Counted from the first letter of the whole stretch, positions 1-47,439 are shown. The stretch: 63,333 nt of DNA, filler included, from Collodictyon triciliatum (GCA_043381765.1; 5 parts of 5 records of this genome joined end to end with filler, not necessarily neighbours in it); one strand, 5' to 3'. A program made the numbers and translations. Notes: generated from the letters alone by a model not told the origin.

Positions 1-3000
1 AAAAAAAAAAAAAACAAAAAAACAAAAAAACAAAAAAACAAAAAAACAAAAAAACAAAAAAACAAAAAAACAAAAAAACAAAAAAACCAAAAATAAAAAA
101 ATGAAATATTGACTAAAATAAACATATTGAATTATCAAAAAGGAAAACGTGTTCAAGGAAAGTATATCCTCTTTATTATGACAATAAATACCATCACATG
201 TTAAAATGTAATGGCGTGTTTTATCGAATTGAATTCCTTTTAGGTATTATGAAATATTAAAAATACTTATTTATCCATATTTTTTTATAATCATCATAGG
301 TATATTAATGGATGTCTATTGATGACATTTGTTTCCTCCAATAATAATGTGTGCGATGCCTAGTTTACTTGCTCCTTATAAGTATGATTTTTTCTCATGA
401 TTAAAATTGGTCTTTCATACTGTGATGGTATCTTCTACAATTTTAATTTTAGGTATCACCAGAGCAAGAATTACATTTAATGAATACGTATATATCCTTC
501 ATTATATAGAAAATCAAAGAGCTCATTCACTGAAACCAATATATCGACAATTTTGATTTAATCCACCATAATTTTTAACATAATAAATTATACGATGAGA
601 ATTTACAGGCCATTATATGAATCTTAAAAAAAAAGTAGTAGCATTCTTGAGGTTTTTTTTATCATAAAGCAAATAATATCATCAAATTAACTTGAAATTC
701 GATCTAATAGAAACATTCAGCTTAATGGAACCTTTTTCTTATCATTTACTCCATATTTAATAGTATATGCTATATTCTGTAGCAATTTTTGAAAATTGCA
801 AGTTTATACGATTTCTTATTTTGTCTGATTAGTTCAAAACTTTATCTTTATGTGAGAGTTATCAACATTTAAGTAGGCAATATCTTACATATATTGAAAT
901 GATGGACAGTATTTACTAAGAATTAATAATTGATTCCTAATTCTTGGAATTCTTCAGTGATACAATTATTCCAGCGAAAGCGATGTATAATAATAATAAT
1001 AATTCATCTCATTATCCTATATTTATTCACAATTATCCATGAAGAAAATGTTGTATAACTTGCTTTATTTCATTGACTCTTGATGATATTTTTAAAAATT
1101 TTTTTATCTAGTAGATTTATCATGTAATCAGCTTATGTACGAATCAATTTTATACAAATTATCTCTAAAATTTATATTTGGATATCAATTTATAACTTAC
1201 CTGTTACATATATGCTTTCACATTCATATTTAACAAATTCTGTGTTTTTATTTTTCCTTTCGGATAGAGCAAGATAGTGGAGGTTTTGGCTTTGATTCGT
1301 TAGCTATCTTAACAAATTCTGTAAATTATTCATCAAGTGAAGTATATCATAATATATCATTGATGAGTTAGCCATCGAGAATTTTCCTTAAATAAGTATA
1401 ATAATTATATTTATTGGTGCCAATATCAGATACCAAGCGAGAATGCGCACTAGTAAGGATTCATTCGATATTCAATCAGAACGTATATTATTCAAGAAAC
1501 TCGTTTGAGACCACGAGCTCTTATGAAACATGTATACTCGATATTTTCAGACTTCATTTTTTTCTGAAATAAGTTGATTTCATTTTGCGGATGAATTTAT
1601 TAAAATTATATCATAGCTTCGTTTTCGTACATAGACTTGGCCAACTTCAGGTATTTTATAACCATTTTACTCCAACCCCTAATAGAAAACGGAGTATCAA
1701 TTGTTGAATCCAATCACAGAGAATATCACTTTTCAATAATTAGCTATCCAAACTATCCTTTAAAGAATACAATATTAAAATCTAAATGTAAATGTATTCC
1801 ATTAACTATGATGGAATGATGATTTTCACTCGAATTAGCGAAATTTAATTAAAATTTTCATCAATAAAAAACCATAAAAACCTCTCGTTATTTTACTAGA
1901 TACAGAATCTGGTGATTTAATTTTGGGTCAGAACGACAAATTATTTAAACAAAATTTTCATTATAAAACTACATAAATCTAAATTATTTTCCATGCCCAA
2001 CTAAATGGTTGTCTTTATCGGCGAGTAAATTTATTGATCTATTAAATTTATAATACTTATCATAAATAAGACAATATGACTAAATAAATTTACATTTTAT
2101 TATTTTCAATAATATTTTGTATTGAATAAAATTACCATATATTTATATTTAAGATATAGTGATTTATAATGACGGTTCCTTTTTATTTTCTCTAACACAA
2201 AATTATTTTTCGAAATATATGAGAAAATAATCGTTTCAAATACTATCTATTGCTTTTTTTGTTGTGGTTATAGCAATTAGATAAATAATTAAAAGCTAAA
2301 AGTATTATAGTCTATTTTAATCATAAATGTGTTAAAACTTGTATTTCTGATAAATTAAAATTCTAAAAAACAAGATTTATTTTTATTTTAACATCTAATA
2401 AATATAAAATTGTGCACGAGAATGATAGTATATAATCTATTATTTTAATGTAAGAAATCAGTTATTTTTTAGAATATTAGATGAAAACAGATTTATCATT
2501 GAAAGCTAATTATTTTAGTTATCATCAATCGCTTAGAAAATAAAAATAATGCATAAACCATCTACACATATGAATTATTTTATGAACTGTTACTTTTTGA
2601 AAAAATAGCAAAAATAATTTTAACTCGATTTTTTTATCATTACATTCTATTCAACCTCGATGCCTTTATTTACAATGTAACTTAATCAGTATTTACGTAG
2701 CGCAGTAAGACACAAAAACTTCAGTCACCAGGACTCACAAAGAGAGATTTCATTCGGCCCTTAAAGGAAAGTAAGAATCAAATAAATTATATCAAATTCA
2801 ATCCTTGCTATGTGTTCCTAGTATGAGTATTACAATTACAATTATTTATATTCATTTAATTATTATATTAATTTAATTATTCATTTAGCTGTATTTCTAT
2901 CAATTTTCTGTTATATTTGAACACCCAATTATTATATAAAGCAAGTAATATTTTCGAATTTTGGGAAAGATAAAAAATCTGAAACAAACGAATTGCTATG

Positions 3001-3106
3001 GGTGGAATTTTTCTAAAGACGAATAATAGGTATTGCTCATTCTTGAGCGAATAAATGCAATATATCTAAAATTTAGGTTGTTCATTTACTTATTCAAACC
3101 ATAGAA

Positions 3107-6100
3107 ATGAGTGCTCATACTTAGTGCTTTCCGCTATTTTGCTCATATTGACATCCTCAGCATACGCGTATCCGGAATTTCAAAGGTTTGTAAATTTAAC
3201 AAAGTTGATTGCAATATATACACATTAATTATAAATGATTAGATGTCAATACTCAAGAGGAGATTTGATGTCTATGAAAGTCGCGGATGCATTTCAAATA
3301 CTCTTGAATCTATACGATGAAGCATGTCCCTCATCTAAAAGCCAACATGATTATCCCTCGCCTGGTGCCCATAACTCTGACGAAAACAAGTTCAGGGAAG
3401 ACGCATTGAATCTTTTCGGTTTTATGAGTGAAAAGAGCAAGAAATTCATAGAAGATTCATATTTCTATGGAAACCCCAACATAATCAAAAATGAGGAGAA
3501 AAACACTCAAAAATTAATTAATGAAGATGACAAGAGCCCGAATAACAAAAATGAAGCAAATCAATATGAGCTTCTTGTTCAGCTATATGATATATTTCGA
3601 GGTGATGACTGGTTCGATAATAGTAGATGGAAAGATGAGAGCATTCCCATTTGCGAATGGCATGGATTGTATTGCCATGAAAACTGTATGGATGAAGATT
3701 ATGAGGTAATTCTTAGAAACAATTTTCAACAAGTAAAGCTTGCTATTAATGTACCTTTGAATAATAGAAAAACACGTGCCCTATTGTTGGATTTCATATG
3801 TCAGGCAATAATATTTATGGGGATATTGAATCGGCATCTTCCATTTTTGAGAAGTTGCCCCTCTTTTCTGAACTGGATCTGAGCTATAATTCTGTGTTTG
3901 GGAATCTTCCAGATTTCAACTTTCCGAGCATTACCTATCTGAATATATACGTGAACCAAATATCAGGAAGCATGCCAAATTTTCAAAAAATTCCGCTGGT
4001 ATCTCACTTGGAGATTGATGGGAATCTATTGGAAGGAAGTGTTCCTAATTTTACAGGAATACCTTATGCAACTACTCTCTGGGTTGGATTGAGTGACAAA
4101 ATTTCGGGTAATCCCCACTTGATCTTTGGAGGATAATTGTACAGATAATTGAGTTATGAATTTTATGCAGGTACTTTGCCAAATTTTACAAAGCTGCCGA
4201 ATATTGAACTTCTTGGTGTTTACGGCAGCAAAATTTATGGTTTGATACTATATTTAAATAATTTATATTCCAAAACTTGCTTCTCTAATAATGAAATTCA
4301 GGAACCATCCCAAACTTTGGCGAAATACCAAATGTCAAAAGTATGCATCTTTATGGGAATGGATTATCTGGTAAAAACTTTTTTATTATTATTATCTGGT
4401 AAATACTGCAATATTTTTACTTAATAATGCTTCAATAATGTCATTTTATAATAGGTACAATCCCAGACTTTGATGGAATTCCAAAAACCAAAGTTATTTA
4501 CCTTGAAAGCAACCGACTTATCGGTATGTTTTTTTTTTAAAAATAAATGAATTGACCAAAAGTAATGTTTCTAATATACTTTGCAGGAACCGTTCCAAAC
4601 TTCTCAAATCTTCCAAATATGATATTTTTTTCGGCTTATGATAATCAAATTGACGGAACTCTTCCCACATTCAACTTTTCAATTGAAATGAAAGAAATAG
4701 TGGTTTTTCGGAACAACATTACCGGTCCATTACCTTCATTAAAGCTTCCATGGCTTAATAGGATAGACTTTAGTGAAAATAAAATAACTGGGTGCATTCC
4801 TAATGACTGGGATATTCCGTTAATTCAATATATAGACTTATCTCGGAACCAGATGCATGGAGACACATGGAATATGTTTCAAAATTTCGCCGGGTTAATA
4901 TCGCTTTCTGTGTCTTACAATCGATTCTCTGGAAATATTCCCTTAAGTATGTGGACTCTGACAAATCTAGTAACTATTGACCTAAGGAACAATTCGTTTT
5001 CTGGAGATGTAGGCCGTTTTATAACTCCAGTTGCGGAATATTACTATTATCACTATGAAAATCTTTTTCTTGATGACAATAATTTGCATGGGGCATTAGA
5101 TTGGTGGATATTTGACTATATGTTCAACGTGAAAAAATTGAGTTTGAGGAACAACAAAATCACAAAGCTTGGTGATCTAACAACTATTTTAAGATGGAAT
5201 TACATCGACCTCTCTGGAAACCCTATTGTTGGAAGTATCCCAGAATCATACAGCGGGTTTAAGAAACTTGAATACTTGGGGTTGAATGTCACCTTGATGA
5301 ATCACGGGAAAGCCAACTTCCTTCCAAATTTTATGAGATATGTGCATCCATTTAGTCTGGAAGATAACTCAAAACTCTACCTATGCCCTTCTATCGTTTC
5401 AAAATCAGGACTGATTAATCTTAAAGTCGACCTTAATCCAAAATATTACAACCATGAATTTTGTACCTGTCTGCCCGGATATTTTGGATTTGGTGATAAT
5501 TGTGTGAAATGTCCAAGAGAATGTGAATGTTTTGATGGATTATCATTGAAATATTGCCATGCTTCTCCTAAAGTTACTTCAGTGAGATCACTTCTGCCAT
5601 GTCCCCGACCTTCATCATGTGAATCTTTGATTCCATACAAGAACCCAAACTCAAGTGAGACCGTCGAGATAACTCGTTTGTGTGCAGAAGGTTACGAAGG
5701 AAGGGGGTGCTCAAAATGCAAGAATGGATATGGAAATCGAGGGTGGTCGTGTGTAAAATGCGATTACCGAAACACTGTTTTGACCTTGATTCTTGGATCT
5801 ATTGGATTCTGCGCGTTCATTGGTTACCTCTACTTCATGGAAACTTCAAAATCAGGTTGTTTAATTTGATTTAATTTTTGCTTTTATAAAAATAATTGAG
5901 AATTAATATCTATTTTACAGCAAAACTTAGGATTACCATGTTTCATATGCAAACACTTTCGATTGTTTCGTCTGGATTAATTCAATCAGAGGATGCAAAT
6001 AGTTTCACATACTTTTCATCATCTATCACCTCGATTCAATTTCCCACCATTTATTGCATCCTCGGAGTAGATCATATATTCAATGAACTCATCCTTAGCT

Positions 6101-7144
6101 TTTCTAGAATACCCATTTTCATTTCTATCGGTGCAATTGCATATGTTTCTGGATACGGTCACCGAAAAAATAAGGTAACGACCAAAAGGAGTCTTCATTT
6201 GATAAAATTCACATTGCATACTTTCTTTTTGAGAAATGATACTGGCCACTTACGAATGTCTAAATATTTCAGGCAATATTCATTACATTGAACCTTTTAT
6301 TCTACATTTACTATTCAATTGCAAGAGAAATCTTTGGCGTTTTTGGTTGCACTATTTATGATGACGGAGAAAAAAAATGGTATCTAAACTACAAACCCTG
6401 GATTCAATGCAGTCCTGGTTCAGATGATTATAAAAAATTGCTCGCAATATCGATACCTGTTTTTTTTCTATTCTTGGTTGGATTGCCAGCTTTTGCGTGG
6501 TGGAAAATCAAAATAATGTTTGAAAAACCGGGATATGAACCAGGAGCACGATATGGGTTCTTGTATCTGCCGTATAAAGAGGTAACTATTAACCTTTATG
6601 TTTGTTTAAGTCACTCAGCATTTGGATAATAATTTTATACTATTCTAACTTAGAGCTTTAAACACTGGGAATTCGTCGTTATTGCACGCCGTATCGCATT
6701 TTCTTTTGTCTTGAGTGTGATTCCATACACTAGGCCCTCTGTGTCATTTTTGCTTCTAGTTGTTATCATTCAGGTTTGAATTCTTACTTTTAATACAAAA
6801 ATTTATCTTGAAATAAAGGAAAATAATACAATCTAAAAACGCAGGGTTCAATCTGGATGCAAAAAGAGTACAAACCATACAACTCGAACATTGAGAATCA
6901 AATGGGTTTATCGAGCCTTTACATCATTTTTGTCTCCTTTTTTCTTGTACTTTTGTCGAGTTTAATAGGCCCCCATGCATGGATAACCGTTTTGTTGATC
7001 GGAATGAACTCTATATGGATTACTTACTTCACATCAATCGCCTTTATCGTTCCCCTTTTCAAAAGCGGTGCGATCAAACAAAAAATTTCTGAGATGAAGA
7101 ATTTGACAAAGAACAAAGAAGTTTTTGACCCTATGTCTCAATGA
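3107..7144 (+). CDS. Multi-exon LRR receptor-like membrane protein: signal peptide, plant-type LRRs, Cys-rich region, multi-pass TM domain; apparent 1-nt frameshift near the start
   Basis: LRR N-cap (LVQLYDIFRGDDWFDNSRWKDESIPICEWHGLYC) and LxxLxLxxNxxxGxIP repeats. Cys-rich CTCLPGYFG...CAEGYEGRGCSKC, then many hydrophobic segments with RYGFLYLPYKE..WEFVVIARR and YKPY..ENQM motifs. GT-AG introns give consistent phases; stop TGA at 7142-7144. The start is uncertain. Confidence 0.85.
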
Positions 7145-8141
7145 AAACCATATTGAAGAAGAAATATAAAACTACTACCGAAGAAAGGTCTAATAAAAGA
7201 ATGACTCCTCCGATTCCTTATTAACACTTGCGGCACTTGACCAAGTGACTCTTTTTTTTTAGGCAAACTCTTTTACATAATTTTCGTTGATGCACATTTA
7301 GTTATTGAATTATTCAATACAGCAAATTGACTGCATGTGAAAGGCAATGATGAATATAATCGGTTCATGTTGGAATCCAAGTAGGCATGTGATCCAATTT
7401 TTGCTCCCGAGTGATTTTTATCTTATTTTTGGTGAATGCAGCGAAAAAAAAATGGAAAGGAATAGCCAAGTAACATGTTTTGCGTGCAGCATATGTCGGT
7501 GTATTCGTTTATCCATACCTCTCCTTACGTGGCAAAAAGTAAAGCTTTATCTAAACTGCCTTTTTAGATGGTTTTGACAAGAGCCACCATTTCGCATGTG
7601 CGTCCTATAATATAAGGTTCGGTGATGAAAGTCTATAGCTCTAGCGCACAAGCCATTCATTTTTTCTGTTATCTCTTGATATCGTGTTCAATTCATGACA
7701 AGGATAGAAACCACCAGCTACGAAGATGCATAAAAGAAATGCTTTGCGCAAGTGTTGAAAAAAAAAAGGAAGGTTGTCTTTTTTTTTTTTCTCTTTTTCC
7801 CAAAAAGCTTGTGACCATGTATCTGCACCACAGTTAAGCCGCCCCCTAAATGCGCACACTGCCAGGTTTTGTGCGAAGCATAATTTGATACTATCGCATC
7901 ATTGCACCCTTGTCACATATATTTTCTTCTCACTTGCAATAATTCGATACACACAAGAAATTATGCATATCTTTTTGTATATTCCACATATATTCCGGGT
8001 AACCACAAAATACAGGCAAACACAAGACACTCAACAACGAACAAAACACAACCACCAAATCGCCCTTCCCTTCCAACCCCCAAATCCATCAGCGCACCCA
8101 CAACACCCTTGCAAACAGACAGACTCCAAGAAACACGTCCG

Positions 8142-10535
8142 ATGCCACCAAAGGATTCCAAGGCAAAGCCGTCCAAGGCCAAAGAGCCCAAGGACAAAGA
8201 CGCCAAAGCCGAGGACACAAAGCGGCCCGATTCGTCCGGCACTGCAGAGGCCAAAGAGGCCGAGCCGAAAGACAGCAAAGCCGCTGCGTCTGAATCTGCT
8301 GCATCCGAACCCGCCTGCATCGGCTGGGGAAACCTGCTGGACAAGTACAAGCCAAAAGAAGGCTCGTGGAAGTGCGATGCGTGCATGCTGATCAACGATC
8401 CAGAGCTTCTCAAGTGCCGCGCCTGCGAACGCGAACGTGAACGTGAACGTGATCGCGACGGCAAACCAAGCAACCCAGTCGCAGGGAACTCCGCGGCAGC
8501 CGATAGCAACTCCGCAGCCGCTTTTCTCTTTGGTGCAAACTCGTCGGCCACAGGCTCCACTTCTCTGGCCTCTGGCCCTCTTGTCTTTGGGACGGTCTCT
8601 GGTGGCTTTGGTTCGGCCGCAAGCCAACCAACCGGCGGGCTTGTTTTCGGCTCATCCTCCAGTGGGTTTGGCTCAGCACCAAGTCAGCCGAGTAGCGGGC
8701 TTGTTTTCGGCTCATCCTCCAGTGGGTTTGGTTCAGCACCTGCATCCACACCCACACCCACACCCGCACCTTCTTCAGCGCCTCCAGCAGACAAACCAAC
8801 AGACTCAAAGACAAGCGAGGCATCGCCAAGCGAGACAAAGAAATCGAAAGGCACCCGCACAAAGCGCAAAGTAAGCGACGAGCAGGCACCAAAAGAAACA
8901 AAGCCGCTCGTTCTGGAGAAGGCAAATCCGGCCATCCAAGCGCGCGTGCCACTCACACGTCTGAGTCCAAAGGGAGTCCCCTGCGATGTCTTTACAGTCG
9001 GCACCAACGAAATCGGCCAGTTGGGCCATGGCGCCCAGCTGAGTGTGGCCAACCGGCCAAAGAAGGTGATGGCAATCTCAAACCAGCTCAAGCTGAAAGC
9101 CTACGATGGAGAATGTGGGACTCTTCATACAATCTTGTTTGCGCTTCCAGCAGAGCCTGCCAACCCGGCCATCCCGACAGTCTCGGACCGGTTTCTGAAC
9201 TCTGTGAAGGCGCTGGAAACAGGCGAGCCATCAGCCGACATACTGGCAAAACCACGCAAGGCAAGAGGACGAAAGCCCGGAACGGAGTCAGCCGAAGCAG
9301 CATGTGCACCGGATGGGACAAAGAAGGAAGAGACGCGGGGCAATGGCTGGGCACTGGTCTCGTGGGGCTGCAATGACGACTTTGCGCTTGGGCGAGTGGA
9401 TGGAGACGAAAACATCCCTGGGATTGTGGCTCTGCCTGCCGAGATACTGAGCGCGGGAATCTCTGTTGTTCAGGTGTCCTGTGGCGATTGCCACAGCGCG
9501 CTGCTTACAGACAGCGGAGCCGTGTATTCGTGGGGGGCGTATCGCAACGCACAGGGACACATCGGATACTCTGCAGACATCTCGCACCAAAAGACACCGC
9601 GCCTTGTGGAGGGAGGGCTGAAGGGCCGCCACATTGTGCAGATTGCCAGCGGAGGGAACCACACGCTGGCCCTGACAGTGGACGGAGAAGTCTTTGCATG
9701 GGGCGACGGACAACACGGGCAGCTCGGACGGCACATGGCGTTGCGCGTAAAGGGCGGACCAAAGGACTTTTTAACACCAAAGTACAACATCGAGTTCCCG
9801 TCTGCCGCGATGAAGGCTGCAGACGAAGGCCAGGACGAGCACAATGCCAAACGCACGCGCTCGGAGTCGGGCAGGTCTGTGCGGAAAACACAGCGTGTGC
9901 CGATTGTGCGAATCTACGCAGGCGCTTATCACAATATGGCGATTGCCCGCAACGGAGCGGTCTTTGGGTGGGGGCTCAACAACCACGGCCAACTTGGGCT
10001 CGGCCACCATGAGTCTGTCAATATCCCTACGCGTGTTGAGCCTGTGGAAGAGCTGAAGCCCGTCCACATGGCACTTGGCAACTACACATCCGCATGGCTT
10101 TCCAGCACGGGCGAGGTCTTTACCGCTGGACGCGGCGATTGCGGGCAACTCGGGTGCGGAGATATGCGGGAAAAGACCAATCCGCAGTTGACTCCGATTC
10201 GTGTCAAGTTTGCCGAGTTCCGGTACAGCGAGGGCGATGCAGAACCCTTGAGCGCAGGCAGCCCGATTGACTGGGTCGAGTATGTGCACACAAGAGGAGA
10301 CCACTTTCTTGCCGTCACAAACAAAGGGAATCTCTACGCCTGGGGCGCGGGCGACATGAGCCAACTGGCAAACGCATCCGGTGATGCAGACTCCAATGAT
10401 GTCATGCAGGAAGGCCGCGATGCCCCGGTTCCAATCCCCATCGCGTCTCGCAATCGCCGCATCCCGATGGCGCTCGGTGGCTCCATGCACACAGTCATCT
10501 TGGCTTCTGCTGCTGAGGCCGACAAGGCCGAATAG
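8142..10535 (+). CDS. RCC1: RCC1 (Ran guanine-nucleotide exchange factor) family protein with N-terminal RanBP2-type zinc finger and FG-repeat region; intronless, 797 aa
   Basis: RCC1 blades resembling true RCC1/Prp20: SWGCNDDFALGR, VVQVSCGDCHSALLTDSGAVYSWGAYRNAQGHIG, IASGGNHTLALTVDGEVFAWGDGQHGQLGR, GAYHNMAI..GAVFGWGLNNHGQLG. Likely start is ATG 8142 (MPPK), where the GC-rich coding character begins. Zinc finger WKCDACMLINDPELLKCRAC. Confidence 0.88.
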   Translation: MPPKDSKAKPSKAKEPKDKDAKAEDTKRPDSSGTAEAKEAEPKDSKAAASESAASEPACIGWGNLLDKYKPKEGSWKCDACMLINDPELLKCRACERERERERDRDGKPSNPVAGNSAAADSNSAAAFLFGANSSATGSTSLASGPLVFGTVSGGFGSAASQPTGGLVFGSSSSGFGSAPSQPSSGLVFGSSSSGFGSAPASTPTPTPAPSSAPPADKPTDSKTSEASPSETKKSKGTRTKRKVSDEQAPKETKPLVLEKANPAIQARVPLTRLSPKGVPCDVFTVGTNEIGQLGHGAQLSVANRPKKVMAISNQLKLKAYDGECGTLHTILFALPAEPANPAIPTVSDRFLNSVKALETGEPSADILAKPRKARGRKPGTESAEAACAPDGTKKEETRGNGWALVSWGCNDDFALGRVDGDENIPGIVALPAEILSAGISVVQVSCGDCHSALLTDSGAVYSWGAYRNAQGHIGYSADISHQKTPRLVEGGLKGRHIVQIASGGNHTLALTVDGEVFAWGDGQHGQLGRHMALRVKGGPKDFLTPKYNIEFPSAAMKAADEGQDEHNAKRTRSESGRSVRKTQRVPIVRIYAGAYHNMAIARNGAVFGWGLNNHGQLGLGHHESVNIPTRVEPVEELKPVHMALGNYTSAWLSSTGEVFTAGRGDCGQLGCGDMREKTNPQLTPIRVKFAEFRYSEGDAEPLSAGSPIDWVEYVHTRGDHFLAVTNKGNLYAWGAGDMSQLANASGDADSNDVMQEGRDAPVPIPIASRNRRIPMALGGSMHTVILASAAEADKAE

Positions 10536-10589
10536 CCCGCGGCTTCCTTTGCTTCTTGGAAGGGAAATCAGAATAAATCATATCTACCT

Positions 10590-10897
10590 TTTTCTTTTTT
10601 TTCTCTTTTTTCTCTCTTTTTTTCTCTCTTTTTTTCTCTCTTTTTTTCTCTCTTTTTTTCTCTCTTTTTTTCTCTCTTTTTTTCTCTCTTTTTTTCTCTC
10701 TTTTNTTTTTTTTTCTCTCTTTTTTCTCTCTTTTTTCTCTCTTTTTTTCTCTCTTTTTTTCTCTCTTTTTTTCTCTCTTTTTTTCTCTCTTTTTTTCTCT
10801 CTTTTTTTCTCTCTTTTTTTCTCTCTTTTTTTTCTCTTTTTCTCTCTTTTTTTCTCTCTTTTTTTCTCTCTTTTTTTCTCTCTTTTTTTCTCTTTTT
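10590..10897. repeat. Pyrimidine-rich tandem repeat, approximately (TTTTTTTCTCTC)n
   Basis: Directly visible; produces spurious F/S/L and K/E/R ORFs. Confidence 0.95.
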
Positions 10898-11953
10898 AGG
10901 ACACATCTCCGAGTTCACAACAGACAAGGAAGTTTGCGGCGACTCTCCTCGCAGAAGCGGCCGTTGGGACGAAAGCGAAGAGGACGAAGAGCGTGTCCAA
11001 CGAACTGCGCTTCAAGCAAAAAGACGGGATGAACGAACACATTAAGCGACGAAGAAGTAAAGCGTAAAGAAACGATTGGAACCAACTGCAAAGCACACGC
11101 GGCTTCGTCGAGCGGTTTCCAGCCCGGAGTCATGGACGTTTGGTCAATAATAAAAGAAATAAGAGATCCTGCCCAGTAGTACAGACTGGCAGACTTTCAG
11201 GCGACTTCGGCCTTGTTTTACCACTCTGCTATCTTCTACCTTGTCTTTTCGGTCTTCCTCTTACCGTCTGATGTTTCATCCTGTCATTCACTCTGAACGC
11301 CGCAGTTGCCGCATGTCGCAGGTTTCTGGTCGGNNNNNNNNNNNNNNNNNNNNNNNNNNNNNNNNNNNNNNNNNNNNNNNNNNNNNNNNNNNNNNNNNNN
11401 NNNNNNNNNNNNNNNNNNNNNNNNNNNNNNNNNNNNNNNNNNNNNNNNNNNNNNNNNNNNNNNNNNNNNNNNNNNNNNNNNNNNNNNNNNNNNNNNNNNN
11501 NNNNNNNNNNNNNNNNNNNNNNNNNNNNNNNNNNNNNNNNNNNNNNNNNNNNNNNNNNNNNNNNNNNNNNNNNNNNNNNNNNNNNNNNNNNNNNNNNNNN
11601 NNNNNNNNNNNNNNNNNNNNNNNNNNNNNNNNNNNNNNNNNNNNNNNNNNNNNNNNNNNNNNNNNNNNNNNNNNNNNNNNNNNNNNNNNNNNNNNNNNNN
11701 NNNNNNNNNNNNNNNNNNNNNNNNNNNNNNNNNNNNNNNNNNNNNNNNNNNNNNNNNNNNNNNNNNNNNNNNNNNNNNNNNNNNNNTCGGGACAGAAGTA
11801 AGCGTTTGTCTATCCCTCCTCTAGCGGTGTTGATCCTGCTAGGTCTCATCACGCATCAGCGCATACTCCAAACTCTTTGCTGGAAACAAAACGGCAAAGT
11901 CGCATGAGTGAGAGAAGATGTTGTGGATGTAACATGAATAATCTCGTATGAAG

Positions 11954-19399: not shown

Positions 19400-21162
19400 T
19401 CAAAGGATTCTGTTCGGTGGAGATGAGCATGAACAGTCAATTATACTGTGCACTTTCCTTTTTCCTTTGTCTTTTTTTTTAATCCACATATCACTGGGAA
19501 AAGACGGATGGTTGGCGTGAGAATCTCCATGGCGATGACAAGATACAACATCACACAGATGGACGAATTTGTTTTGCGTCGAACTGAGTGTTTTTTTTTT
19601 TATTTTTATATTTATTATTATTATCATCTTTCATTTACATCAAGGATAAAAATAAAAAAGAGAGAAAAAAAGGAGAAAAATAAGAGTCTTCTGTCTGGTG
19701 GATTTTCAAAATTAGTGCGTGCTGGGTCACATCTACGACCGTAGGCGGACGACGACGATGGAGATATTGTCTGTGCTTTCAGATAGAAAAGCCATATCTT
19801 TAAGAATCAAAGCTGCAGCACGACAGCTTTCGCACCCTTCAATCATTTTGGCAGCATCCTCATCACTCACGGTGTCCCACAGACCATCTGACGCCACGAT
19901 GAGCCATTCATCCTTCTCCGACCTGAAGTGATTTCCATCGGAATTTGAGGATATAAGGTTCAGTATACGTACATGCAGACAAGTGCGTGTTTGTAGCATC
20001 GTCGCGAGGAAATAAATAGATAAATGAGGAACATCGCTATCATAATCAAAGGGGCAAGATTGCCTGTTCAGTTCAAGAAGGAAAGGCTCTGGTGTGACGG
20101 ACGGTTGTAGATGCAGGTCACCAAACGAGCGAGAGACTGCAAGGACACCAGAGATGCGCCCGTCTTCAGTAACAAATCCTCCCATGTCGCGAATTCGCCC
20201 GTGTTCATCAGGATTCTGCCAACATTTTAAATCGCAACCAGAGGTTTGAAGGATTAGTTCACAATACACATAAAAAATGAAAGGGACAGAGGAATAAACA
20301 GCTAACTTAAAAAAAAAAAGAGACATAAAAATTGTGCGCATGTATGTAATTTAATAAAGTTAAGTAAAACAATAATAATGAAATTAAATAGAATGAATGT
20401 ATAAATTACAAACATATGGTTTGTGGTCGACAGACACGCGCTCCACTTGACCCCCTCTGCGACAAATAATTGCTCGAGAGTCACCGGCATTTGCAACAAA
20501 TATTTGTGTTTTGGTAATCTGATGCATACCAACGTTTGTTGTGTGTAGGTGGCAAATATTGAAGAAATAAGAGAAGCAAAATGAAACAGCAGTATCTCAA
20601 AACATATTTGAAAAAATAATTACAAGTATGAGATGATTTGGTCTGAAAAGTTCATAAAGGTATTTCCTTTTGTTTTTTCTTCAATTTTTTAAATAGAGTA
20701 CCAAAACAGTTGATGATGTACTTCCGGATGCTATCGATGTAGACTCCTTGAGATTTGAGTCCATATCGATATATGTTCTAAATATTCGCAAAAAGAAAGA
20801 AAGAAAGAAACAGCAAAGTAGAAATTTTGATTTAGAAGGGCAGTTGTGTAAGACACGGTGTTGAACCACATAAAGCTGTACTTTTTCAAAGCGTCCGTAG
20901 GTTTTGACGTTTCAAGATGTTTTTTGAGTGCCTACAACGTTCAAAAAGACTTAAAATCTGTGAAAATAAAAAAAAGGAAGAGGGAGCTACTGAGATGTCC
21001 AAAGAAAGGTGCTTGAAATCGAGTCCATATCAAAAGCATTACAATGGGAAAGGCATCCTTCAAATGTTGGGCAGTCGACACTCCGTCATGACCTACATTA
21101 AGAGTGGTTCATATTTAACTGAGAAATTCTATTCAAAACAGTATCTACTTAAGCGATGACTA

Positions 21163-33360: not shown

Positions 33361-34265
33361 GAGACCAGAAGTATGATGGCGCCAGTCAGCCTCGTGCAGG
33401 GTCGAGCTTGCATCGGGAAACGGAACCTCCCGATCGATCATTTGTTGCTGACGTACCGCGATCGAAAAGTGCGATTGAGAACGAACTCTTCAAAGACAAA
33501 GACTGCTTTGTCCGCCTTTGGGGCAAGCCATAGCTGGTTCTCTCTTTCGCAAACCGTAGTAACATGTGCAAGCAACTGCGGGAGGTTATGGAAGCCCGGG
33601 AGTGCTACGAGAAAGACGTGACACTAATGGTGGACAGACCCTGCCCTTGGACTCAGGATCGCCTTCCAGAAAAGAANNNNNNNNNNNNNNNNNNNNNNNN
33701 NNNNNNNNNNNNNNNNNNNNNNNNNNNNNNNNNNNNNNNNNNNNNNNNNNNNNNNNNNNNNNNNNNNNNNNNNNNNNNNNNNNNNNNNNNNNNNNNNNNN
33801 NNNNNNNNNNNNNNNNNNNNNNNNNNNNNNNNNNNNNNNNNNNNNNNNNNNNNNNNNNNNNNNNNNNNNNNNNNNNNNNNNNNNNNNNNNNNNNNNNNNN
33901 NNNNNNNNNNNNNNNNNNNNNNNNNNNNNNNNNNNNNNNNNNNNNNNNNNNNNNNNNNNNNNNNNNNNNNNNNNNNNNNNNNNNNNNNNTGTCCACCATT
34001 AGTGTCACGTCTTTCTCGTAGCACTCCCGGGCTTCCATAACCTCCCGCAGTTGCTTGCACATGTTACTACGGTTTGCGAAAGAGAGAACCAGCTATGGCT
34101 TGCCCCAAAGGCGGACAAAGCAGTCTTTGTCTTTGAAGAGTTCGTTCTCAATCGCACTTTTCGATCGCGGTACGTCAGCAACAAATGATCGATCGGGAGG
34201 TTCCGTTTCCCGATGCAAGCTCGACCCTGCACGAGGCTGACTGGCGCCATCATACTTCTGGTCTC
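33361..34265. repeat. Inner arms of a large inverted repeat: 33361-33636 and 33990-34265 (276 bp, identical by eye) around an N-gap
   Basis: Reverse-complement match; the ORF track gives identical peptides on opposite strands. Confidence 0.95.
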
Positions 34266-34878
34266 NNNNNNNNNNNNNNNNNNNNNNNNNNNNNNNNNNN
34301 NNNNNNNNNNNNNNNNNNNNNNNNNNNNNNNNNNNNNNNNNNNNNNNNNNNNNNNNNNNNNNNNNNNNNNNNNNNNNNNNNNNNNNNNNNNNNNNNNNNN
34401 NNNNNNNNNNNNNNNNNNNNNNNNNNNNNNNNNNNNNNNNNNNNNNNNNNNNNNNNNNNNNNNNNNNNNNNNNNNNNNNNNNNNNNNNNNNNNNNNNNNN
34501 NNNNNNNNNNNNNNNNNNNNNNNNNNNNNNNNNNNNNNNNNNNNNNNNNNNNNNNNNNNNNNNNNNNNNNNNNNNNNNNNNNNNNNNNNNNNNNNNNNNN
34601 NNNNNNNNNNNNNNNNNNNNNNNNNNNNNNNNNNNNNNNNNNNNNNNNNNNNNNNNNNNNNNNNNNNNNNNNNNNNNNNNNNNNNNNNNNNNNNNNNNNN
34701 NNNNNNNNNNNNNNNNNNNNNNNNNNNNNNNNNNNNNNNNNNNNNNNNNNNNNNNNNNNNNNNNNNNNNNNNNNNNNNNNNNNNNNNNNNNNNNNNNNNN
34801 NNNNNNNNNNNNNNNNNNNNNNNNNNNNNNNNNNNNNNNNNNNNNNNNNNNNNNNNNNNNNNNNNNNNNNNNNNNNNN

Positions 34879-35788: not shown

Positions 35789-36201
35789 CTCCCTTTTCCT
35801 CTTTTCTCTTTTTTCTCTTTTTTCTCTCTTTTTCTCTCTTTTTCTCTCTTTTTCTCTCTTTTTCTCTCTTTTTCTCTCTTTTTCTTTCTTTTTTCTCTTC
35901 TTTCTCTCTCTTTTTTCTCTCTCTTTTTTCTCTTCTTTTTCTTCTTTCTCTTCTTTCTCTTTTTTTCTCTTTTTTTCTCTTTTTCTCTTTTTTCTCTTCT
36001 TTCTCTTCTTTTCTCTTCTTTCTCTTCTTTCTCTTCTTTCTCTTCTTTCTCTTCTTTCTCTTTTTTTTCTCTCTCTTTTCTCTCTCTTTTCTCTTTTTTT
36101 CTCTTTTTTTCTCTTTTTTTCTCTTTTTTTCTCTTTTTTTCTCTTTTTTTCTCTTTTTTTTCTCTCTTTTTTCTTCTTTTTTCTTTTTTCTCTTTTCTCT
36201 T
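35789..36201. repeat. CT-rich low-complexity tract
   Basis: Directly visible at a contig edge. Confidence 0.95.
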
Positions 36202-36265
36202 CGGTACGATCACGTTTTAAAATGCTTATTATTTCAACCATTTTTAATTTTGCAGGGCTTTCGTC

Positions 36266-39200
36266 ATGGGAAACAAGCCGGCGCGACCTGTCCAGCCTTC
36301 AAAGAATCCTACTGTTTCGGTATAATATTTTGCAGGATACATATATCAACTTTCTTTGCCTTTGCCTTTGCCTTTGCCTTTGCCTTTGCCTTTGTTTTGT
36401 TTTTGTCTTTGTTTTTGTCTTTGTTTTTGTCTTTGTTTTTGTCTTTGTTTTTGTTTTATTTTTATTTTTCTTATTTACTTTGAAATGAAAGAAATCATAT
36501 TAATTCTTGTAGAAATGGAAAACAACGGCTTCTAGTGTAAGGCTCGTTATACGCTGCCAAGCAAGGGTGCGTGGCTTCCTGGCTCGAAAGCGGTTCAAAA
36601 GGATGAAAGAAGGTTTCTGTCTTGACTGGTCCTATCCTTTCTTTCTTCTTTATTCTGTTTGACGTCGTCTCATCGCAAGAAATCATTTACAGAAAACAAG
36701 TTCCGAAGATCAATCATGAGTGAGATTGTCAACACAGAGAGGGGATATCTTCAACACTTGGAGGCGATGGTCAAGGTTTGTGATGTGGAGCATTAAGCCT
36801 TTTTTTCTTTTTTCTTTTTTTTCTTTTTTCTTTTTTTCTTTTTTTCTTTTTTTCTTTTTTTCTTTTTTTCTTTTTTCTTTTTCTTTTCTTTTTCTTTTTC
36901 TTTTTCTTTTTCTTTTTCTTTTTCTTTTTCTTTTTCTTTGTTTCATCAGGCCGGGCTATATATCCTTTCTATAAGATTATTTAGTGGTAGTTACTATGCT
37001 ATTCTTTACCATGCGAATTCTTCTCAAATGGTTCCTATACATCGATTCTCATTCTGACAATTAATATAGAATTATATGGATCCTATGTCGGAACCAAGCT
37101 CCTGCCTCAACAGAGAAGAAGTTGAGCTAATTTTCTCCAGGAATATACCGATTATCATGAGACTGCATGCGGTAGTTTTATCAACCACCTTCCTGAAATT
37201 TTTGTTTGGTGAGGTTTATCTATCATAAATCATGAATGTTATCACAAGCTTTGATTTCGGTTAGGATATTCTTAAGCAACTGGAAGTAAAATGGAAATCT
37301 TGGAGATATACATCCACTGTTGGAGATGTATTTAATTATGTGGTTGGTGGATTCATTAATTCTAATCTAATTGGCTTTTTTAAAATAGTAAAATATACGT
37401 TTTATGACTGATGGCCTTAATATTCTCCATGTTTTTTTTCTTTATGCGATGTGTAAATTGACCAAAAACTGAGAATAATGCTAACGATTTATCCTTTTTT
37501 TTTTTAAAAAAAAAAAAACTCACACAAACAGGCACCTTTTCTTAAATGTCACTCAGAATATGTGAACCAATATCAGAGATCCATCTCAACACTGGTGACA
37601 GCACAGGTTCATCTCATACCTGATCCGAAAAAAAAAACTTATTTTTATGATTAAGTTGAATTATTCTGATTTTAAATATAACCACCTGACCTTTTTTCCT
37701 CAAAAATGATTAAAATTGTCTTCAGAAACGAACTGCGGTTAAAAACTTCCTGAAGGTGTGTTAGTAGCACAAATATGCTTAAGGCATGAACACCGCTGTT
37801 GCTTCGATTTTACAAACAGTAATTAATCTGTAAAAAAAAATTAAATAAATTAAAAAAAATAGAAAGTCAGAGACCAAGGCTTCATGGATCTTCCATCGTA
37901 TTTGATTATGCCTGTGCAACGTGTTCCTAGATATGAACTCCTTTTACGTGTATGTTTTTGCAGAAAACTCCACTAGCTTTGGACTAATTTGTTTGTGTTA
38001 TACGATTTTGTTGCAGGATCTTTTAAACAATCAATAATACTTTATTAATTTTTAAGGAAATGCTGAAGTTTACCCCCAAGTCACACCCTGATTTCGCCTT
38101 GGTTGACAAAGCACTCGAACAAGGTTTTTTTGCGGATTTTATAATTCACTCTATGCCCGAATGACCATATTCTTATTTCTTGATAATTGATTGCATATGT
38201 GCCTTTTTTTAATCTTATTTTAATACAGTCAAGCAAGCTGCATCCGTTATCAATGAAAAGAATCGTGAAGCTGAGAGCCAAACTAAAATGATTGAAATAC
38301 AACAACTTTATCCAAATATTGAGGTTTTTTTTACAAGACTTTGGCACCCATATGTGCTTTTCATATTCTAATCACCTATAATTTCCAAAAATCTTTACCT
38401 CTTAATTAGATTCTTGCAGCACACCGCAGATTCGTCAAACAAGGAGAGTTTGAACAGGTTACACGTGCCTCACAGATATTCAGGAACACACGCACTGTTT
38501 TCCTCTGCAATGACGCATTCATCATAACTTTCCCCAGAGCACTCAATCAAGTTTGTACTTTTTTTTTTTAAGAAAAAATTATGTATTCGATTCATGAATC
38601 ATGATTACATATTTATATTTACAACAAATGCCATTTTCTCTATTTCCTGTTCAAATGTATCATTATTTTTACTTTGTTTTAAAATTTAAGCGTCTCACTT
38701 TTCTTATATTCCTTTTTAATTCCTTTTATATCAGGACGATGTTTTAATTATCTCGCTTGAAAAGTTTGCCATTTTTCCGTGCTACTCGTCCGATCCGAGT
38801 TCAAGTATGATACTTTTATGGGAGTTATGGTTTTATACCTGTTCTTGCAGTATTCGCTCTGACATGTCTCCCACTATCGATATATATATATATATTAATT
38901 ATATGCAATATGTTGATACTTTCTGCGTCATATACCCATTCAGACGTGTTTCGCCAAGTTGAAATACATGCTAGGGAGATTTCCACGTATCTGAACAATC
39001 CAAAGACCGCACTTGTGCTTGAGTCAAAAGAAAATGTCATGGAATGGTACGAGCTGATCAAGGCAACCACAACAAGCTGGATTCAGAGCATCATGAAACC
39101 CCAACGAGGTGCGGTTCAGCAGTTTACTGCATCACAGCAAATTATAGCACAATGAATCTCTCATTCTAGTACAATTCATTCTTACTAGTTCCATTTTTAA

Positions 39201-40173: not shown

Positions 40174-40871
40174 TTTTTTTTTTTTTTTTTTTTTTTTGTT
40201 TTTTTTTTTTTTTTTTTTTTTTTNNNNNNNNNNNNNNNNNNNNNNNNNNNNNNNNNNNNNNNNNNNNNNNNNNNNNNNNNNNNNNNNNNNNNNNNNNNNN
40301 NNNNNNNNNNNNNNNNNNNNNNNNNNNNNNNNNNNNNNNNNNNNNNNNNNNNNNNNNNNNNNNNNNNNNNNNNNNNNNNNNNNNNNNNNNNNNNNNNNNN
40401 NNNNNNNNNNNNNNNNNNNNNNNNNNNNNNNNNNNNNNNNNNNNNNNNNNNNNNNNNNNNNNNNNNNNNNNNNNNNNNNNNNNNNNNNNNNNNNNNNNNN
40501 NNNNNNNNNNNNNNNNNNNNNNNNNNNNNNNNNNNNNNNNNNNNNNNNNNNNNNNNNNNNNNNNNNNNNNNNNNNNNNNNNNNNNNNNNNNTTTTTTTGG
40601 GTGTGTGTGTGTGTGTGTTTTCTGCTGGTCATTTCACAACTTCTTATCTTGCGCAGAGAGCCAAAAACAATATGGCACTGTGTTTCCTATGTGGCACGAT
40701 GCCTTTCTTCTTGAAGGTTTGGATGCAAGGAACATTTGCAAGCATATCTGCAGAATTGTGATTGAGGATAGTTTAGAACTAGAAATTGACTTTGTGAACG
40801 CATCCATTGCCAGATTTATTGCCTCAAGTGCCAAGCGCTTTGCTGCCAACGATGCGCAGTCAAGAAAATAG
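36266..40871 (+). CDS. RhoGEF: IQ motif + DH + PH + ankyrin repeats
   Basis: Start MGNKPA; IQ motif IRCQARVRGFLARKRF. DH motifs EIVNTERGYLQHL, LPSYLIMPVQRVPRYELLLREMLKFTPKSHPD, VINEKNRE. PH motifs HRRFVKQG..VFLCND..EWYELI. Ankyrins GNLPIHIAAMNG, GQTPLHLS, GKTPLVHA. Stop TAG at 40869-40871. Confidence 0.92.
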
Positions 40872-44884: not shown

Positions 44885-46482
44885 ATGACGGGCTCAAACG
44901 ACCACGCCGCACCAAACACCGATCTTGAGGCATATCAAAGCATCGTTTACAAGACTGGCTCTGCCTTGGGCGTAATTTACTCTCGCTTTTCTCTTTTCTT
45001 TCTTTCCTTTATTTTCATTCTTTTCTTTCTTTTCTTTCTTTTTTCTTTTCTTTTTTCTTTCTTTTCTTTTTTCTTTCTTTTCTTTTTTCTTTCTTTTCTT
45101 TTTTCTTTCTTTTTCTTTTCTTACTTTTCTTACTTTTCTTACTTTTCTTACTTTTCTTACTTTTCTTACTTTTCTTACTTTTCTTACTTTTCTTACTTTT
45201 CTTACTTTTCTTACTTTTCTTACTTTCTTACTTTCTTTCTTTTTNNNNNNNNNNNNNNNNNNNNNNNNNNNNNNNNNNNNNNNNNNNNNNNNNNNNNNNN
45301 NNNNNNNNNNNNNNNNNNNNNNNNNNNNNNNNNNNNNNNNNNNNNNNNNNNNNNNNNNNNNNNNNNNNNNNNNNNNNNNNNNNNNNNNNNNNNNNNNNNN
45401 NNNNNNNNNNNNNNNNNNNNNNNNNNNNNNNNNNNNNNNNNNNNNNNCTTTTCTTACTTTTCTTTCTGGGGCGCAAACTTGCCCACGCATTAACCATCCG
45501 AAACCAATCGACACAGTACGGCTTTGTGGCCGGAGTCATTTCAGGCTCCCTTCGCGCTTCATGGTACGACCCACCCACGCAAACAGGAACCATGGCCCTT
45601 TTCGAGTCGCGTCGCGAAGCCGTCCGCGAATATCGCAGCGGCAGAGTGGCAGAATCTCTGGCCACAAACACTGCCACAACTGTAGAGCAGCTCGCAAAGA
45701 AGGCCGGTGTCGGGTAATCCCTTTATAAAAAAAAAAAAAGCATCAATATCAAAGAAAAATACTTAAGAGAGTGGCCAAACATATATATGTATATAATCGC
45801 CTTAAATCAACACTGATGATGTGGGACATCATACTCCGTATGACATATTGACCGCAAGGTTTCAGCTCAACCAAAGACTGGGGCACTCACTTACCAGGAA
45901 ACGCATATTGACAGACACACAGAGACATCATTCTTCCGCAGCTCCTTCCAGATTGTCAAGAGCCAGGCTTTCCTTGTCTCTGCTGCAGCAGGCACATATG
46001 CGCTCGTAGAAGGCCTCGCAGGTCTGATTTCATCGCATCCAATCAAACAATCAGATAACTCGACAATCTTTATACATGTCCGACTGCTGATTATGCCTCT
46101 TTTTCTCTTTTCACAAACAGAAAACTTCCGTGGCGAAAAGGACACATGGAATCACGCTCTGGGTGCTTGCAGCAGCGGCCTTGTCCTCGGCGCACGTGGT
46201 GAGTTTAGCAGACAGACTAGATTATCTACACAGATGATATATCAACAACCGAGTATACGTACTCTATGACTCACCAGCACCATGCGCAATCTGAATATTT
46301 TCATACTTTCTTCCCTTTCTTTTCTTCTTCTTTTCCTTGGCTATTATTTGTGTCTATCTGATTTTCGGACTAAAAAAAAACGTGTAGCTGGGAATCTGTC
46401 GCTAGGGCTGGGAAGCTGCCTGGGTTTCTCGGCATTCATCTCGGCCATGGACCTTGCACGCAAGGCTGCATCTGATGATTAA
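44885..46482 (+). CDS. Tim17/Tim22/Tim23-family membrane protein (NDUFA11/B14.7-like or Tim22-like)
   Basis: GSALG/YGFVAGVISG and AAAGTYALVEGLA/ENFRGEKDTWNHALGACSSGLVLGAR/AGNLSLGLGSCLGFSAF. The R-x-K-D-x-W-N plus GxxxG signature is present; stop TAA at 46480-46482. Confidence 0.85.
45116..45231. repeat. Intronic (TTTTCTTAC)n nonamer repeat running into a gap
   Basis: Directly visible; the motif resumes after the gap at 45448. Confidence 0.93.
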
Positions 46483-46758: not shown

Positions 46759-47399
46759 TTATGCATCATCGTTCGCAAAAGCAAAATAGGAACATGCGAG
46801 AGAAGAAGTCGGCGAACGCGGAGCAAAAAGCAGAAACTCAGATTCCCCCGTGAATGGTGAGAGAGTGAATGCAGTGTTATCCGCACTCACAGATTCGGTT
46901 TTGGCTGGGCTGAAGCTGTCATTGAAGCTGTCATTGAAGCCAAACGGGTCTGACAGTGTGGCTGAAAAGGTTGAGTCTGGGGGCGAGGTCGGCTTCTGTG
47001 GCTGCGGCTGTGGCTGTGGCTGTGGCAGCCCGTGTGTGGCAGCGCGCATGATGACCACACGCACGTCATGCAGCTGCTCCTTGAGAGTGGCGTTCTCGGC
47101 CTCCAAGACATAAAGCTGCTTCTCCAGTCGCGCGCGCAACTCCAGCATAACTTTCGCCTTCTGCTCCAGACTTGACACATAGACCTGCACAAAAGTAATT
47201 TCCTCTGTTAGTCTCTGCTGTCCAGCTGCTTTGCCACGGGAACATCCGAAAGAGGTATCTATTTCGGTCTCAATTGTCATAAATTCCACATATATGTGAA
47301 AATAAGCTATGTTTGCTCCGTCTTCCACTCTTTATCACGCTTCTATGCAATATGTAGATACACGGCCATCTCATTTTTCTCTTTCTTTGTATATTTTTA

Positions 47400-47439
<40 letters not shown>

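Follow-up and report, generated by a model that had tools for sequence, protein, structure and literature searches.

It is textbook knowledge that RCC1 makes Ran-GTP on chromatin, away from the nuclear pore, and RCC1 is, to our knowledge, the only known guanine nucleotide exchange factor (GEF) for Ran (RanGEF). The zinc fingers of Nup153 prefer Ran-GDP. Nup153 is described as having, at the nuclear basket, four fingers that can bind Ran(GDP) (PMC13242641), an N-terminal fragment of Nup50 as stimulating RCC1 (PMC8634129; also PMC11825100), and TgRCC1 of Toxoplasma gondii, a highly divergent RCC1, as a functional GEF (PMC5785795). Here we describe a gene from Collodictyon triciliatum (GCA_043381765.1) whose product combines an RCC1-type propeller with a zinc finger and phenylalanine-glycine (FG) repeats. 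It lies at positions 8142-10535 (plus strand) of a stretch of 63,333 nt (hereafter, the window), in which five parts of that genome's records, not necessarily neighbors, are joined end to end with filler. The encoded protein most likely belongs to a protist subfamily in which a module known otherwise from nucleoporins of the nuclear basket stands ahead of a catalytic propeller.

Upstream of the open reading frame (ORF), the same frame has a stop codon at 7881-7883 and no ATG from there to 8142. An earlier reading of the window, made from the sequence alone (the sequence-only reading), had listed within one uninterrupted frame an MPPK start, a charged linker, a finger, a tract of FG dipeptides, a basic patch, and a full RCC1 propeller. 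That observation is confirmed: the frame runs uninterrupted for 797 amino acids, with every element at the position given for it. The features of the gene are as follows (residue numbers refer to the encoded protein).

8142..10535, plus strand: coding sequence of the RCC1-type gene, complete and intronless, 797 codons plus stop (standard code)
8142..8306, plus strand: N-terminal tail, residues 1-55, with the MPPK start (residues 1-4), K/E/D/A-rich, modeled as disordered
8322-8426, plus strand: GWGNLLDKYKPKEGSWKCDACMLINDPELLKCRAC, residues 61-95, the lead-in plus finger named by the sequence-only reading
8322..8348, plus strand: lead-in GWGNLLDKY, residues 61-69, common to Nup153 fingers and other finger/FG-RCC1 proteins
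8355..8429, plus strand: RanBP2-type C4 zinc ribbon, residues 72-96 (W76, C78, C81, N85, C92, C95)
8430..8459, plus strand: short (ER)n/RD run after the finger
8460..8786, plus strand: tract of residues 107-215 containing the seven FG motifs, disordered, uncharged, and rich in S/G/A/T/P
8838..8870, plus strand: basic patch KKSKGTRTKRK, residues 233-243, candidate nuclear localization signal
8985..10517, plus strand: seven-blade RCC1 propeller, residues 282-792 (from Pfam, AlphaFold2 model, fold search, and profile)
9531..9569, plus strand: WGAYRNAQGHIGY, residues 464-476, gapless against the human RCC1 beta-wedge stretch
10083..10088, plus strand: Y648-T649 at the positions of human RCC1 H304-H305 (blade 6), substitutions unique among the 47 RCC1-clade rows

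The protein resembles RCC1, Prp20 (Srm1), and Pim1 in its seven blades, its collinear alignment, a beta-wedge of the same length, the equivalents of D128 and H410 (RCC1 numbering), and a basic stretch ahead of the propeller; it shares the MPPK start with mouse-type RCC1s. It differs from them in having ~260 extra N-terminal residues that include the finger and the FG repeats, in loops inserted in blades 1, 5, and 7, and in carrying Tyr-Thr at H304/H305 and Asn at D182. As the sequence-only reading had held, the tail of canonical RCC1 is short; in a vertebrate RCC1 of 421 amino acids (P0357), the propeller envelope starts at residue 36. With Nup153 and RanBP2/Nup358 the protein has in common the same C4 ribbon, a DK(F/Y)KP..G(S/T)W lead-in, a hydrophobic pair, and adjacent FG motifs, but it has one finger rather than 4 to 8, with the pair M-L where theirs is L-V, this finger is carried by the exchange factor, and Pfam identifies neither a pore-anchoring region nor a RanBD. 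The partnership of Nup50/Nup2 with RCC1 offers another parallel, in that an element of a basket nucleoporin works with RCC1, although Nup50 and RCC1 are separate proteins in animals, and the Collodictyon protein has no match to the NUP50 N-terminal domain (PF08911) at E up to 0.1. The same domain order, in some cases with a Cys-less segment where the finger would be, is found in the finger/FG-RCC1 relatives introduced below (P0019, P0092, P0005, P0313, P0325, P0337, and P0338), whose propellers are 28-37% identical to this one. Compared with these, the Collodictyon protein is set apart by its propeller loops, which are the longest, by the Tyr-Thr pair found in it alone, and by an extra K/E/D-rich MPPK tail before the finger.

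Fold, Family, and Catalytic Positions of the Propeller

Pfam detects the propeller strongly (WD40_RLD, 6e-83; RCC1, 3e-62, in seven stretches), and the full set of blades that the sequence-only reading had claimed is present between residues 282 and 792. The AlphaFold2 model, based on a 12-row alignment, has a mean predicted local distance difference test (pLDDT) value of 63 and a predicted template modeling score (pTM) of 0.60. Within it, the blades are mostly at pLDDT 80-95, interrupted by low-confidence, lineage-specific loops at residues 341-348, 367-400 (within about 337-400), 557-582, and 694-709, and the TM-score to 1a12/1i2m is 0.85-0.87 when normalized to the target. A Foldseek search of the PDB returned only true RanGEFs at ranks 1-10 (7e-35 to 1e-30), namely human RCC1, the Ran-RCC1 complex, nucleosome-bound RCC1, yeast Prp20, and Drosophila RCC1, with UVR8 and HERC2 placed from 8e-27 down.

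By phmmer, residues 405-683 (145-423 of the propeller segment) are collinear with human RCC1 88-340. This interval includes the stretch aligned with the beta-wedge, which requires zero gaps (FRDNNGVI versus YRNAQGHI), whereas HERC2 needs a two-residue gap there; strands of the wedge are modeled at 461-465, 467-469, and 472-475. Residues 146-153 of human RCC1 are, as we understand the Ran-RCC1 structure, the blade 3 beta-wedge hairpin that inserts into Ran. The wedge motif and a second motif, WGCNDD..LGR, each occur in 35 of 47 RCC1-clade rows and in 0 of 12 other RCC1-like domains, and the Collodictyon protein has both (it should be noted that the two motifs were defined only after the alignment was seen). 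Against a 417-position profile made from the propeller columns of alignment A1, the protein is matched in one piece (1-416, 478 bits), as is vertebrate RCC1; fungal Pim1 and oomycete RCC1 are collinear in two pieces, and RCBTB, IBtk, PRAF, 800-residue algal, and bacterial proteins give repeated partial matches only. Judged by the collinear alignment, the beta-wedge, and the fold search, the propeller is of the RanGEF type.

Catalytic positions were read on the residue ruler of the 421-residue vertebrate RCC1, with counts taken over the 47 RCC1-clade rows. We take D128, D182, H304, and H410 to be the catalytically important residues, on the basis of the alanine-scan literature. The equivalents of D128 and H410 are kept (D449, with D in 46/47 rows, and H783, with H in 45/47 rows), and the equivalent of D44 is Glu. 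The other two positions are considered along with the rival explanations below.

The N-terminal Module and Its Relatives

The pattern W-x-C-x2-C-x3-N-x6-C-x2-C matches the protein at residue 76. The finger is modeled at pLDDT of about 84, and the lead-in as a short helix (residues 62-68). When a 56-residue finger segment was compared with the PDB, the best matches were to RanBP2/Nup358 (1e-31, a sum across its fingers) and to Nup153 (3gj7_B, E 1.6e-13; a single finger together with the lead-in gives 37.6 bits). Matches to fingers that bind other ligands are weaker (TAB2, 26.5 bits; Npl4, 13.5; RBM5, 13). The Ran-binding fingers among these matches follow C-x-x-C-[LC]-[VL]-x-N, and the corresponding residues here are C-D-A-C-M-L-I-N. 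By these comparisons the finger is in the Nup153/RanBP2 subclass, the kind to which the sequence-only reading had assigned it, and it is predicted to bind Ran.

The FG dipeptides, also as originally described, number seven (FLFG, LVFG three times, and GFGS three times) and lie at residues 130-197 (nt 8529-8735), within the disordered, uncharged segment. Gly follows 7/8 Phe in the tract, 2 of its 109 residues are charged, and seven or more FG arise in only 1/100000 shuffles of it; residues 111-277 are modeled at pLDDT <50. Part of the tract consists of two 20-residue units that are identical at 52/60 nt, with 6/8 of the differing bases at third codon positions. Pfam at E up to 0.1 shows only the finger and the RCC1 repeats, with no domain that could anchor the protein to the pore scaffold, and for this reason we do not class it as a nucleoporin. 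It might still behave like a mobile, basket-associated one. The basic KKSKGTRTKRK patch, again as noted by the sequence-only reading, has the position of a KR-rich stretch that occurs just ahead of the propeller in relatives; in the search with profile A1, one human RCC1 match (5tbk_I) begins at chain residue 8, in the N-terminal tail.

The layout was scanned for in 272 proteins, retrieved by searches with the full protein, the propeller alone, and the relative P0005, of which 164 are RCC1-type by the two motifs. The full-protein word-index search gave 45 matches among 7999 candidates and was probably swamped by low-complexity words. An exhaustive search with profile A1 added 149 new proteins, which were left out of the layout scan. 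That search is no census, as 148 of its best 150 are proteins of 897-7235 residues matched in 8-39 stretches with summed scores, and only P0089 and P0249 among those 150 were matched collinearly. Starts of the form M[SPAG]PK occur in 8/272 proteins, this one included. Of the other seven, six are RCC1s by name or by tree position, and the seventh, P0131, is RCC1-like by eye only; the MPPK start itself is common to several animal and chytrid RCC1s. In animals, an MPPK-type start is a substrate of N-terminal methyltransferase.

A CxxC...CxxC pair ahead of the propeller was found in 9/164 proteins, or 8/164 once P0129, a bacterial-type membrane protein and a false positive of the regular expression, had been dropped. 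The eight are the Collodictyon protein, P0005, P0019 (Cafeteria roenbergensis), P0120, P0313, P0325 (with two fingers), P0337, and P0338. At least three FG motifs precede the propeller in 15/164, again including the Collodictyon protein (others are, e.g., P0092 of Prymnesium parvum and P0354, with eleven FG). Thus, the architecture is not special to this protein, given that a finger is present in at least seven other RCC1-type proteins and that three or more FG motifs lie N-terminally in 14 others. For the sequence-only reading, a layout both widespread and already described would have counted as a refutation. Widespread it is, because it recurs in other RCC1-type proteins, and the domain order recurs in independent lineages. 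As to prior description, the full-text literature (subscription papers and supplements aside) has yielded no account of a RanBP2-type finger or of FG repeats on an RCC1, in keeping with the statement of the sequence-only reading that it knew of no characterized RCC1 of this architecture. Papers that pair "RCC1" with "zf-RanBP" concern HECT ligases and FYVE/PX proteins. Automatic annotations do exist: the Cafeteria protein is labeled "RanBP2-type domain-containing protein" and P0325 "regulator of chromosome condensation." The finger/FG-RCC1 layout is therefore real, conserved, uncharacterized, and not unique to the C. triciliatum genome.

The lead-in GWG(N/D)LL.K(Y/F) is readily recognized in the relatives (GWGDLLKKY in P0313, GWGNLLQKF in P0337, and GWGNLLDKF in P0338) and in haptophyte-type proteins. 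The hydrophobic pair before the Asn is L-V in P0005, P0313, P0325, and P0338, and M-V in P0337; it is divergent in Cafeteria (K-A), and P0120 is without the Asn. Overall, [LM][VL]xN is present in 7/10 RCC1-linked fingers seen. In the haptophyte-type proteins, lead-in, FG repeats, and basic stretch are all retained, and the position of the finger is taken by a conserved segment without Cys, which may be a relic of the finger. P0337 and P0338 fall beside oomycete RCC1s with 100/100 support in the careful tree described below.

A metagenome scan returned distant RCC1s (L001-L005) and a nucleoporin-like protein with fingers and FG repeats (L006 and L007), and no locus near-identical to 8142-10535. 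On the two marine metagenome contigs in question (L006:2-3199 and L007:3-2510), a long protein without an RCC1 domain contains repeated units, each with a Nup153-like finger (GEGWG..EEGSWKCDACMVRN), GGFSFG repeats, and an acidic segment that is conserved. It has the appearance of an FG nucleoporin of the Nup153 type from a protist, and it shows that protists have the module in a nucleoporin-like context as well.

Some further observations concern individual relatives. P0249 (2325 amino acids) contains three full RCC1-type propellers (11-473, 740-1202, and 1587-2055), at least one of them preceded by a finger and FG repeats; it may be either a tandem gene array fused by gene prediction or a true triple protein. 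Oomycete-type RCC1s (P0375, P0350, P0373, and P0370), together with P0337, P0338, and L003:346-1482, have a segment ahead of the propeller with the pattern KR...VSKE.Y, then ...ALN.AF...W...Y..Y. Pfam NUP50 matches P0337, P0338, P0373, and P0375 (4/4 examined) at 12.7-16.6 bits, below its cut-off of 22.5, and a profile of these N-termini (A2) matched only RCC1-like chains when compared with the PDB. As a sub-threshold lead, the segment may represent a second fusion between a nucleoporin and RCC1, in which case P0337 and P0338 combine a finger, FG repeats, a Nup50-like segment, and RCC1.

Phylogeny, Environmental Reads, and Rival Explanations

Two trees were calculated. The quick tree had 59 rows, comprising 47 RCC1-type sequences (this one included) and 12 other RCC1-like domains (HERC3/4, RCBTB1, BTB-RCC1, IBtk, PRAF, and four unnamed); RCC2, UVR8, RPGR, and HERC1/2 were not among the rows of either tree. 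RCC1-type and other sequences are split with a Shimodaira-Hasegawa-like approximate likelihood ratio test (SH-aLRT) value of 99, and the Collodictyon protein, on a branch of 1.42, lies near the haptophyte-type proteins (support 89). In the careful tree, which had 34 rows with five shorter outgroups, it again falls on the RCC1 side, where the split has support of 99/97. It nests within none of the sampled non-RanGEF families. Over the kept tree columns the closest row is env_P0111, and identity to the finger/FG relatives does not exceed 40%.

Of the environmental runs listed, 20/21 contain a small share of the words of the gene. The share is 0.05-0.10 in 16 of these and is not read as a sign of habitat; the other four runs were aligned to the locus. 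In these, 9/12 pieces are at least 99% identical, and their positions are all within the coding sequence or at its edges; the pieces from RNA libraries cover 8128-8266, 9047-9330, 9162-9935 (in parts), and 10271-10541. The four runs give no coverage of 7600-8127 or of most of 8770-9046, which is uninformative either way, and none at the Tyr-Thr site. The reads differ from the window at three sites in the propeller, all synonymous and at third positions, and at two in the tail (8169 and 8172), which result in P10S and S11P, i.e., P10 and S11 are swapped. A contig from run X2 matches from 8737 onward only, and its preceding 118 bases are unlike the window. This contig suggests that the FG / Pro-Thr linker varies in length or sequence among strains.

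On balance, we consider it probable that the protein is the RCC1-family Ran exchange factor of this organism, with a module attached that would capture Ran and karyopherins. A number of results weigh against this. No RNA-library contig in the four runs (12 short pieces) bridges the N-terminal module and the propeller; because none does, and because such libraries can contain DNA, these pieces do not establish a single transcript. Ranked by summed HMMER score against the PDB, HERC2 RLD3 comes ahead of RCC1. The summed-score ranking was discarded as a guide to family because the HERC2 matches are overlapping, non-collinear pieces of two or three blades. Other results would suit a divergent RCC1 paralog, with a weakened or dead propeller retained as a scaffold or regulator for Ran or karyopherins while a canonical RCC1 encoded elsewhere performs the exchange. 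At the H304 site, H is present in 46/47 rows and this protein is the sole exception, and at the H305 site (H in 43/47) it alone has T. H304 presumably contributes to catalysis, if we follow the alanine-scan literature. Exchange activity may be weakened because the equivalent of H304 is Tyr here, and the Tyr-Thr pair is the chief point against full catalytic competence. The D182 equivalent is N506, and Asn is frequent at this position in the clade (19 of 47 rows, against 21 with Asp). The propeller has large lineage-specific loops, and the organism may have a second, canonical RCC1 gene. The end branch is long (1.35-1.42), and in the careful tree the protein splits off first on the RCC1 side, with the remaining 28 rows together as its sister group (89/82). 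Moreover, when it was grouped with the 12 non-RanGEF rows in an approximately unbiased (AU) test over 59 rows, the grouping was not rejected (p 0.553, lnL +0.95); this grouping is the same attachment point as a basal branch on the RCC1 side, viewed from the other side. The trees fit a fast-evolving RCC1 drawn to the base as well as a separate deep lineage, and alone they leave its place unsettled owing to the long basal branch. Thus, of the expectation that the propeller would fall in the RanGEF clade, the part that stands is its position on the RCC1 side of the 99/97 split, and the part that does not is a secure placement within it. Nevertheless, we judge the paralog unlikely. The equivalents of D128 and H410, the beta-wedge, and WGCNDD..LGR are all kept, the N-terminal module is common to firmly nested RCC1 orthologs such as P0337/P0338 (100/100), and all three propeller differences in the environmental reads are synonymous. 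TgRCC1, likewise a highly divergent protist RCC1, is still reported as a Ran GEF (PMC5785795).

Even if the protein is a RanGEF, its finger could bind some other ligand (ubiquitin, RNA, or DNA), and the FG tract could be no more than a flexible linker, or could help the protein itself to cross the pore. Fingers with such other ligands (TAB2, Npl4, ZRANB1, and RBM5) are among the matches. The domain-architecture search that the sequence-only reading had proposed gave strong RCC1 repeats and, for the finger, a Zn_ribbon_RanBP score of 26.9 bits (residues 72-96), just below the 27-bit cut-off. The pair before the Asn is M-L, a conservative variant of the L-V of Nup153/RanBP2 fingers, and it diverges further in the Cafeteria protein and in P0120, as noted above. 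Furthermore, haptophyte relatives have lost the four Cys and still have FG repeats, the number of FG motifs, seven, is low by nucleoporin standards, and the protein has no match to Pfam Nucleoporin_FG at E up to 0.1. Set against this are the score for Nup153/RanBP2 (37.6 bits, compared with at most 26.5 for other subclasses), the retention of [LM][VL]xN in most RCC1-linked fingers, the pairing of finger and FG repeats in the nucleoporin-like protist protein, and the presence, on one chain with the finger, of a domain expected to act on Ran. We regard this alternative as quite improbable. A frame that joins two genes, or an assembly chimera that places a GC-rich foreign gene in AT-rich DNA, has to be considered given the base composition. 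The gene has GC 0.58 and GC3 0.62 in flanks of about 0.33-0.40; the window is mostly AT-rich (GC 0.25-0.40 in most 2-kb bins), and the ORF stands out as a sharp block (8100-10500, GC 0.55-0.61), with the change at the ORF ends. Neighboring ORFs have GC3 of only 0.34-0.53, and an assembly gap (11334-11786) begins ~800 nt 3' of the ORF. However, positions 1-11333 are contiguous, with zero N runs of five or more bases, other ORFs in the window are also richer in GC than intergenic DNA (0.51), and the same domain order is found in at least seven independent proteins from other sources. There is also no stop, and no internal Met from which a separate propeller gene could start: only M1 and M82 (the latter within the finger) precede the propeller, and the next, M310, is in blade 1, so a complete propeller without the FG tract could not be translated from 8142-10535. 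An artifact of this kind seems to us highly improbable.

If the protein is, as we favor, the exchange factor of this organism, its mode of action might be as follows. Capture of RanGDP or NTF2-RanGDP, or docking at the nuclear basket, with import and exchange coupled in one polypeptide, had been suggested as a possibility by the sequence-only reading. The basic tail and patch would serve nuclear entry and binding to chromatin, much as they do in canonical RCC1. The finger would hold Ran, preferentially as Ran-GDP, beside the catalytic face and so increase the local concentration of substrate. The FG motifs would transiently bind NTF2 or carriers of the importin-beta type, and incoming Ran-GDP or import complexes would be passed on to the exchange factor. 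In effect, the jobs of RCC1, Nup153, and Nup50, which are divided among those proteins in animals, would be done on one chain. A bolder version, which we offer tentatively and think doubtful though tenable, is that in stramenopiles, haptophytes, and the lineage of Collodictyon the RanGEF is itself a mobile, basket-type nucleoporin, whose finger takes Ran-GDP and whose FG motifs take NTF2 or importin-beta off the pore, such that exchange is coupled to import. The finger/FG fusion, and perhaps the Nup50-like one of oomycete-type relatives, would then be a Rosetta-stone record of the partnership of RCC1, Nup153, and Nup50, and the Tyr-Thr pair would mark a catalytic face that depends on tethering.

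The conserved fusion of RCC1, finger, and FG repeats argues that direct hand-over of Ran-GDP or carriers to the exchange factor is selectively valuable, and it provides independent comparative support for the activation of RCC1 by a basket nucleoporin (Nup50). It also offers a compact, single-chain system in which to ask how substrate tethering alters GEF kinetics. Finally, it broadens the search image for lineages in which no RanGEF has been recognized, such as trypanosomes, for which a paper on the pore states that none has been identified (PMC11825100).

Flanking Sequence and Neighboring Genes

Directly 3' of the stop codon, and outside the protein, is a polypyrimidine repeat, (T5-8 CTCTC)n, at 10590..10897 (plus strand). 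Similar long polypyrimidine/polypurine simple repeats occur in the window at 35789-36480, 44950-45240, and 60200-60400. In addition to the gap at 11334-11786, the window has gaps at 33677-33989, 34266-34878, 40224-40591, and 45245-45447, plus eight 44-base N runs, and it is because of these many gaps that we regard the assembly as a draft. The flanks of the gaps at 33.7-34.9 kb are inverted copies of one another, which suggests an unresolved inverted repeat. An Rfam scan of the window gave no match.

GC content is strongly uneven between the genes of the window, with intergenic DNA at about 0.33. GC3 is 0.34-0.36 in a leucine-rich repeat (LRR) gene (ORFs at 3235-5869), 0.42 in a PP2C exon, and about 0.49-0.53 in two further ORFs (46759-47331 and 54520-55146), which have an overall GC of 0.51, also above that of intergenic DNA. 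The LRR gene, at 3235-6629 (plus strand), is receptor-like and extends over several frames, with matches to LRR_8, LRR_4, and LRR_1; a Cys-rich, EGF-like stretch and hydrophobic segments follow downstream, and the gene is split by introns or frame errors. The exon of a PP2C phosphatase is at 19733-20350 (minus strand; Pfam, 6e-22). Lastly, a GC-richer gene at 46759-47998 (minus strand) has a basic region followed by leucine-zipper-like heptads and is, by eye only, bZIP-like.

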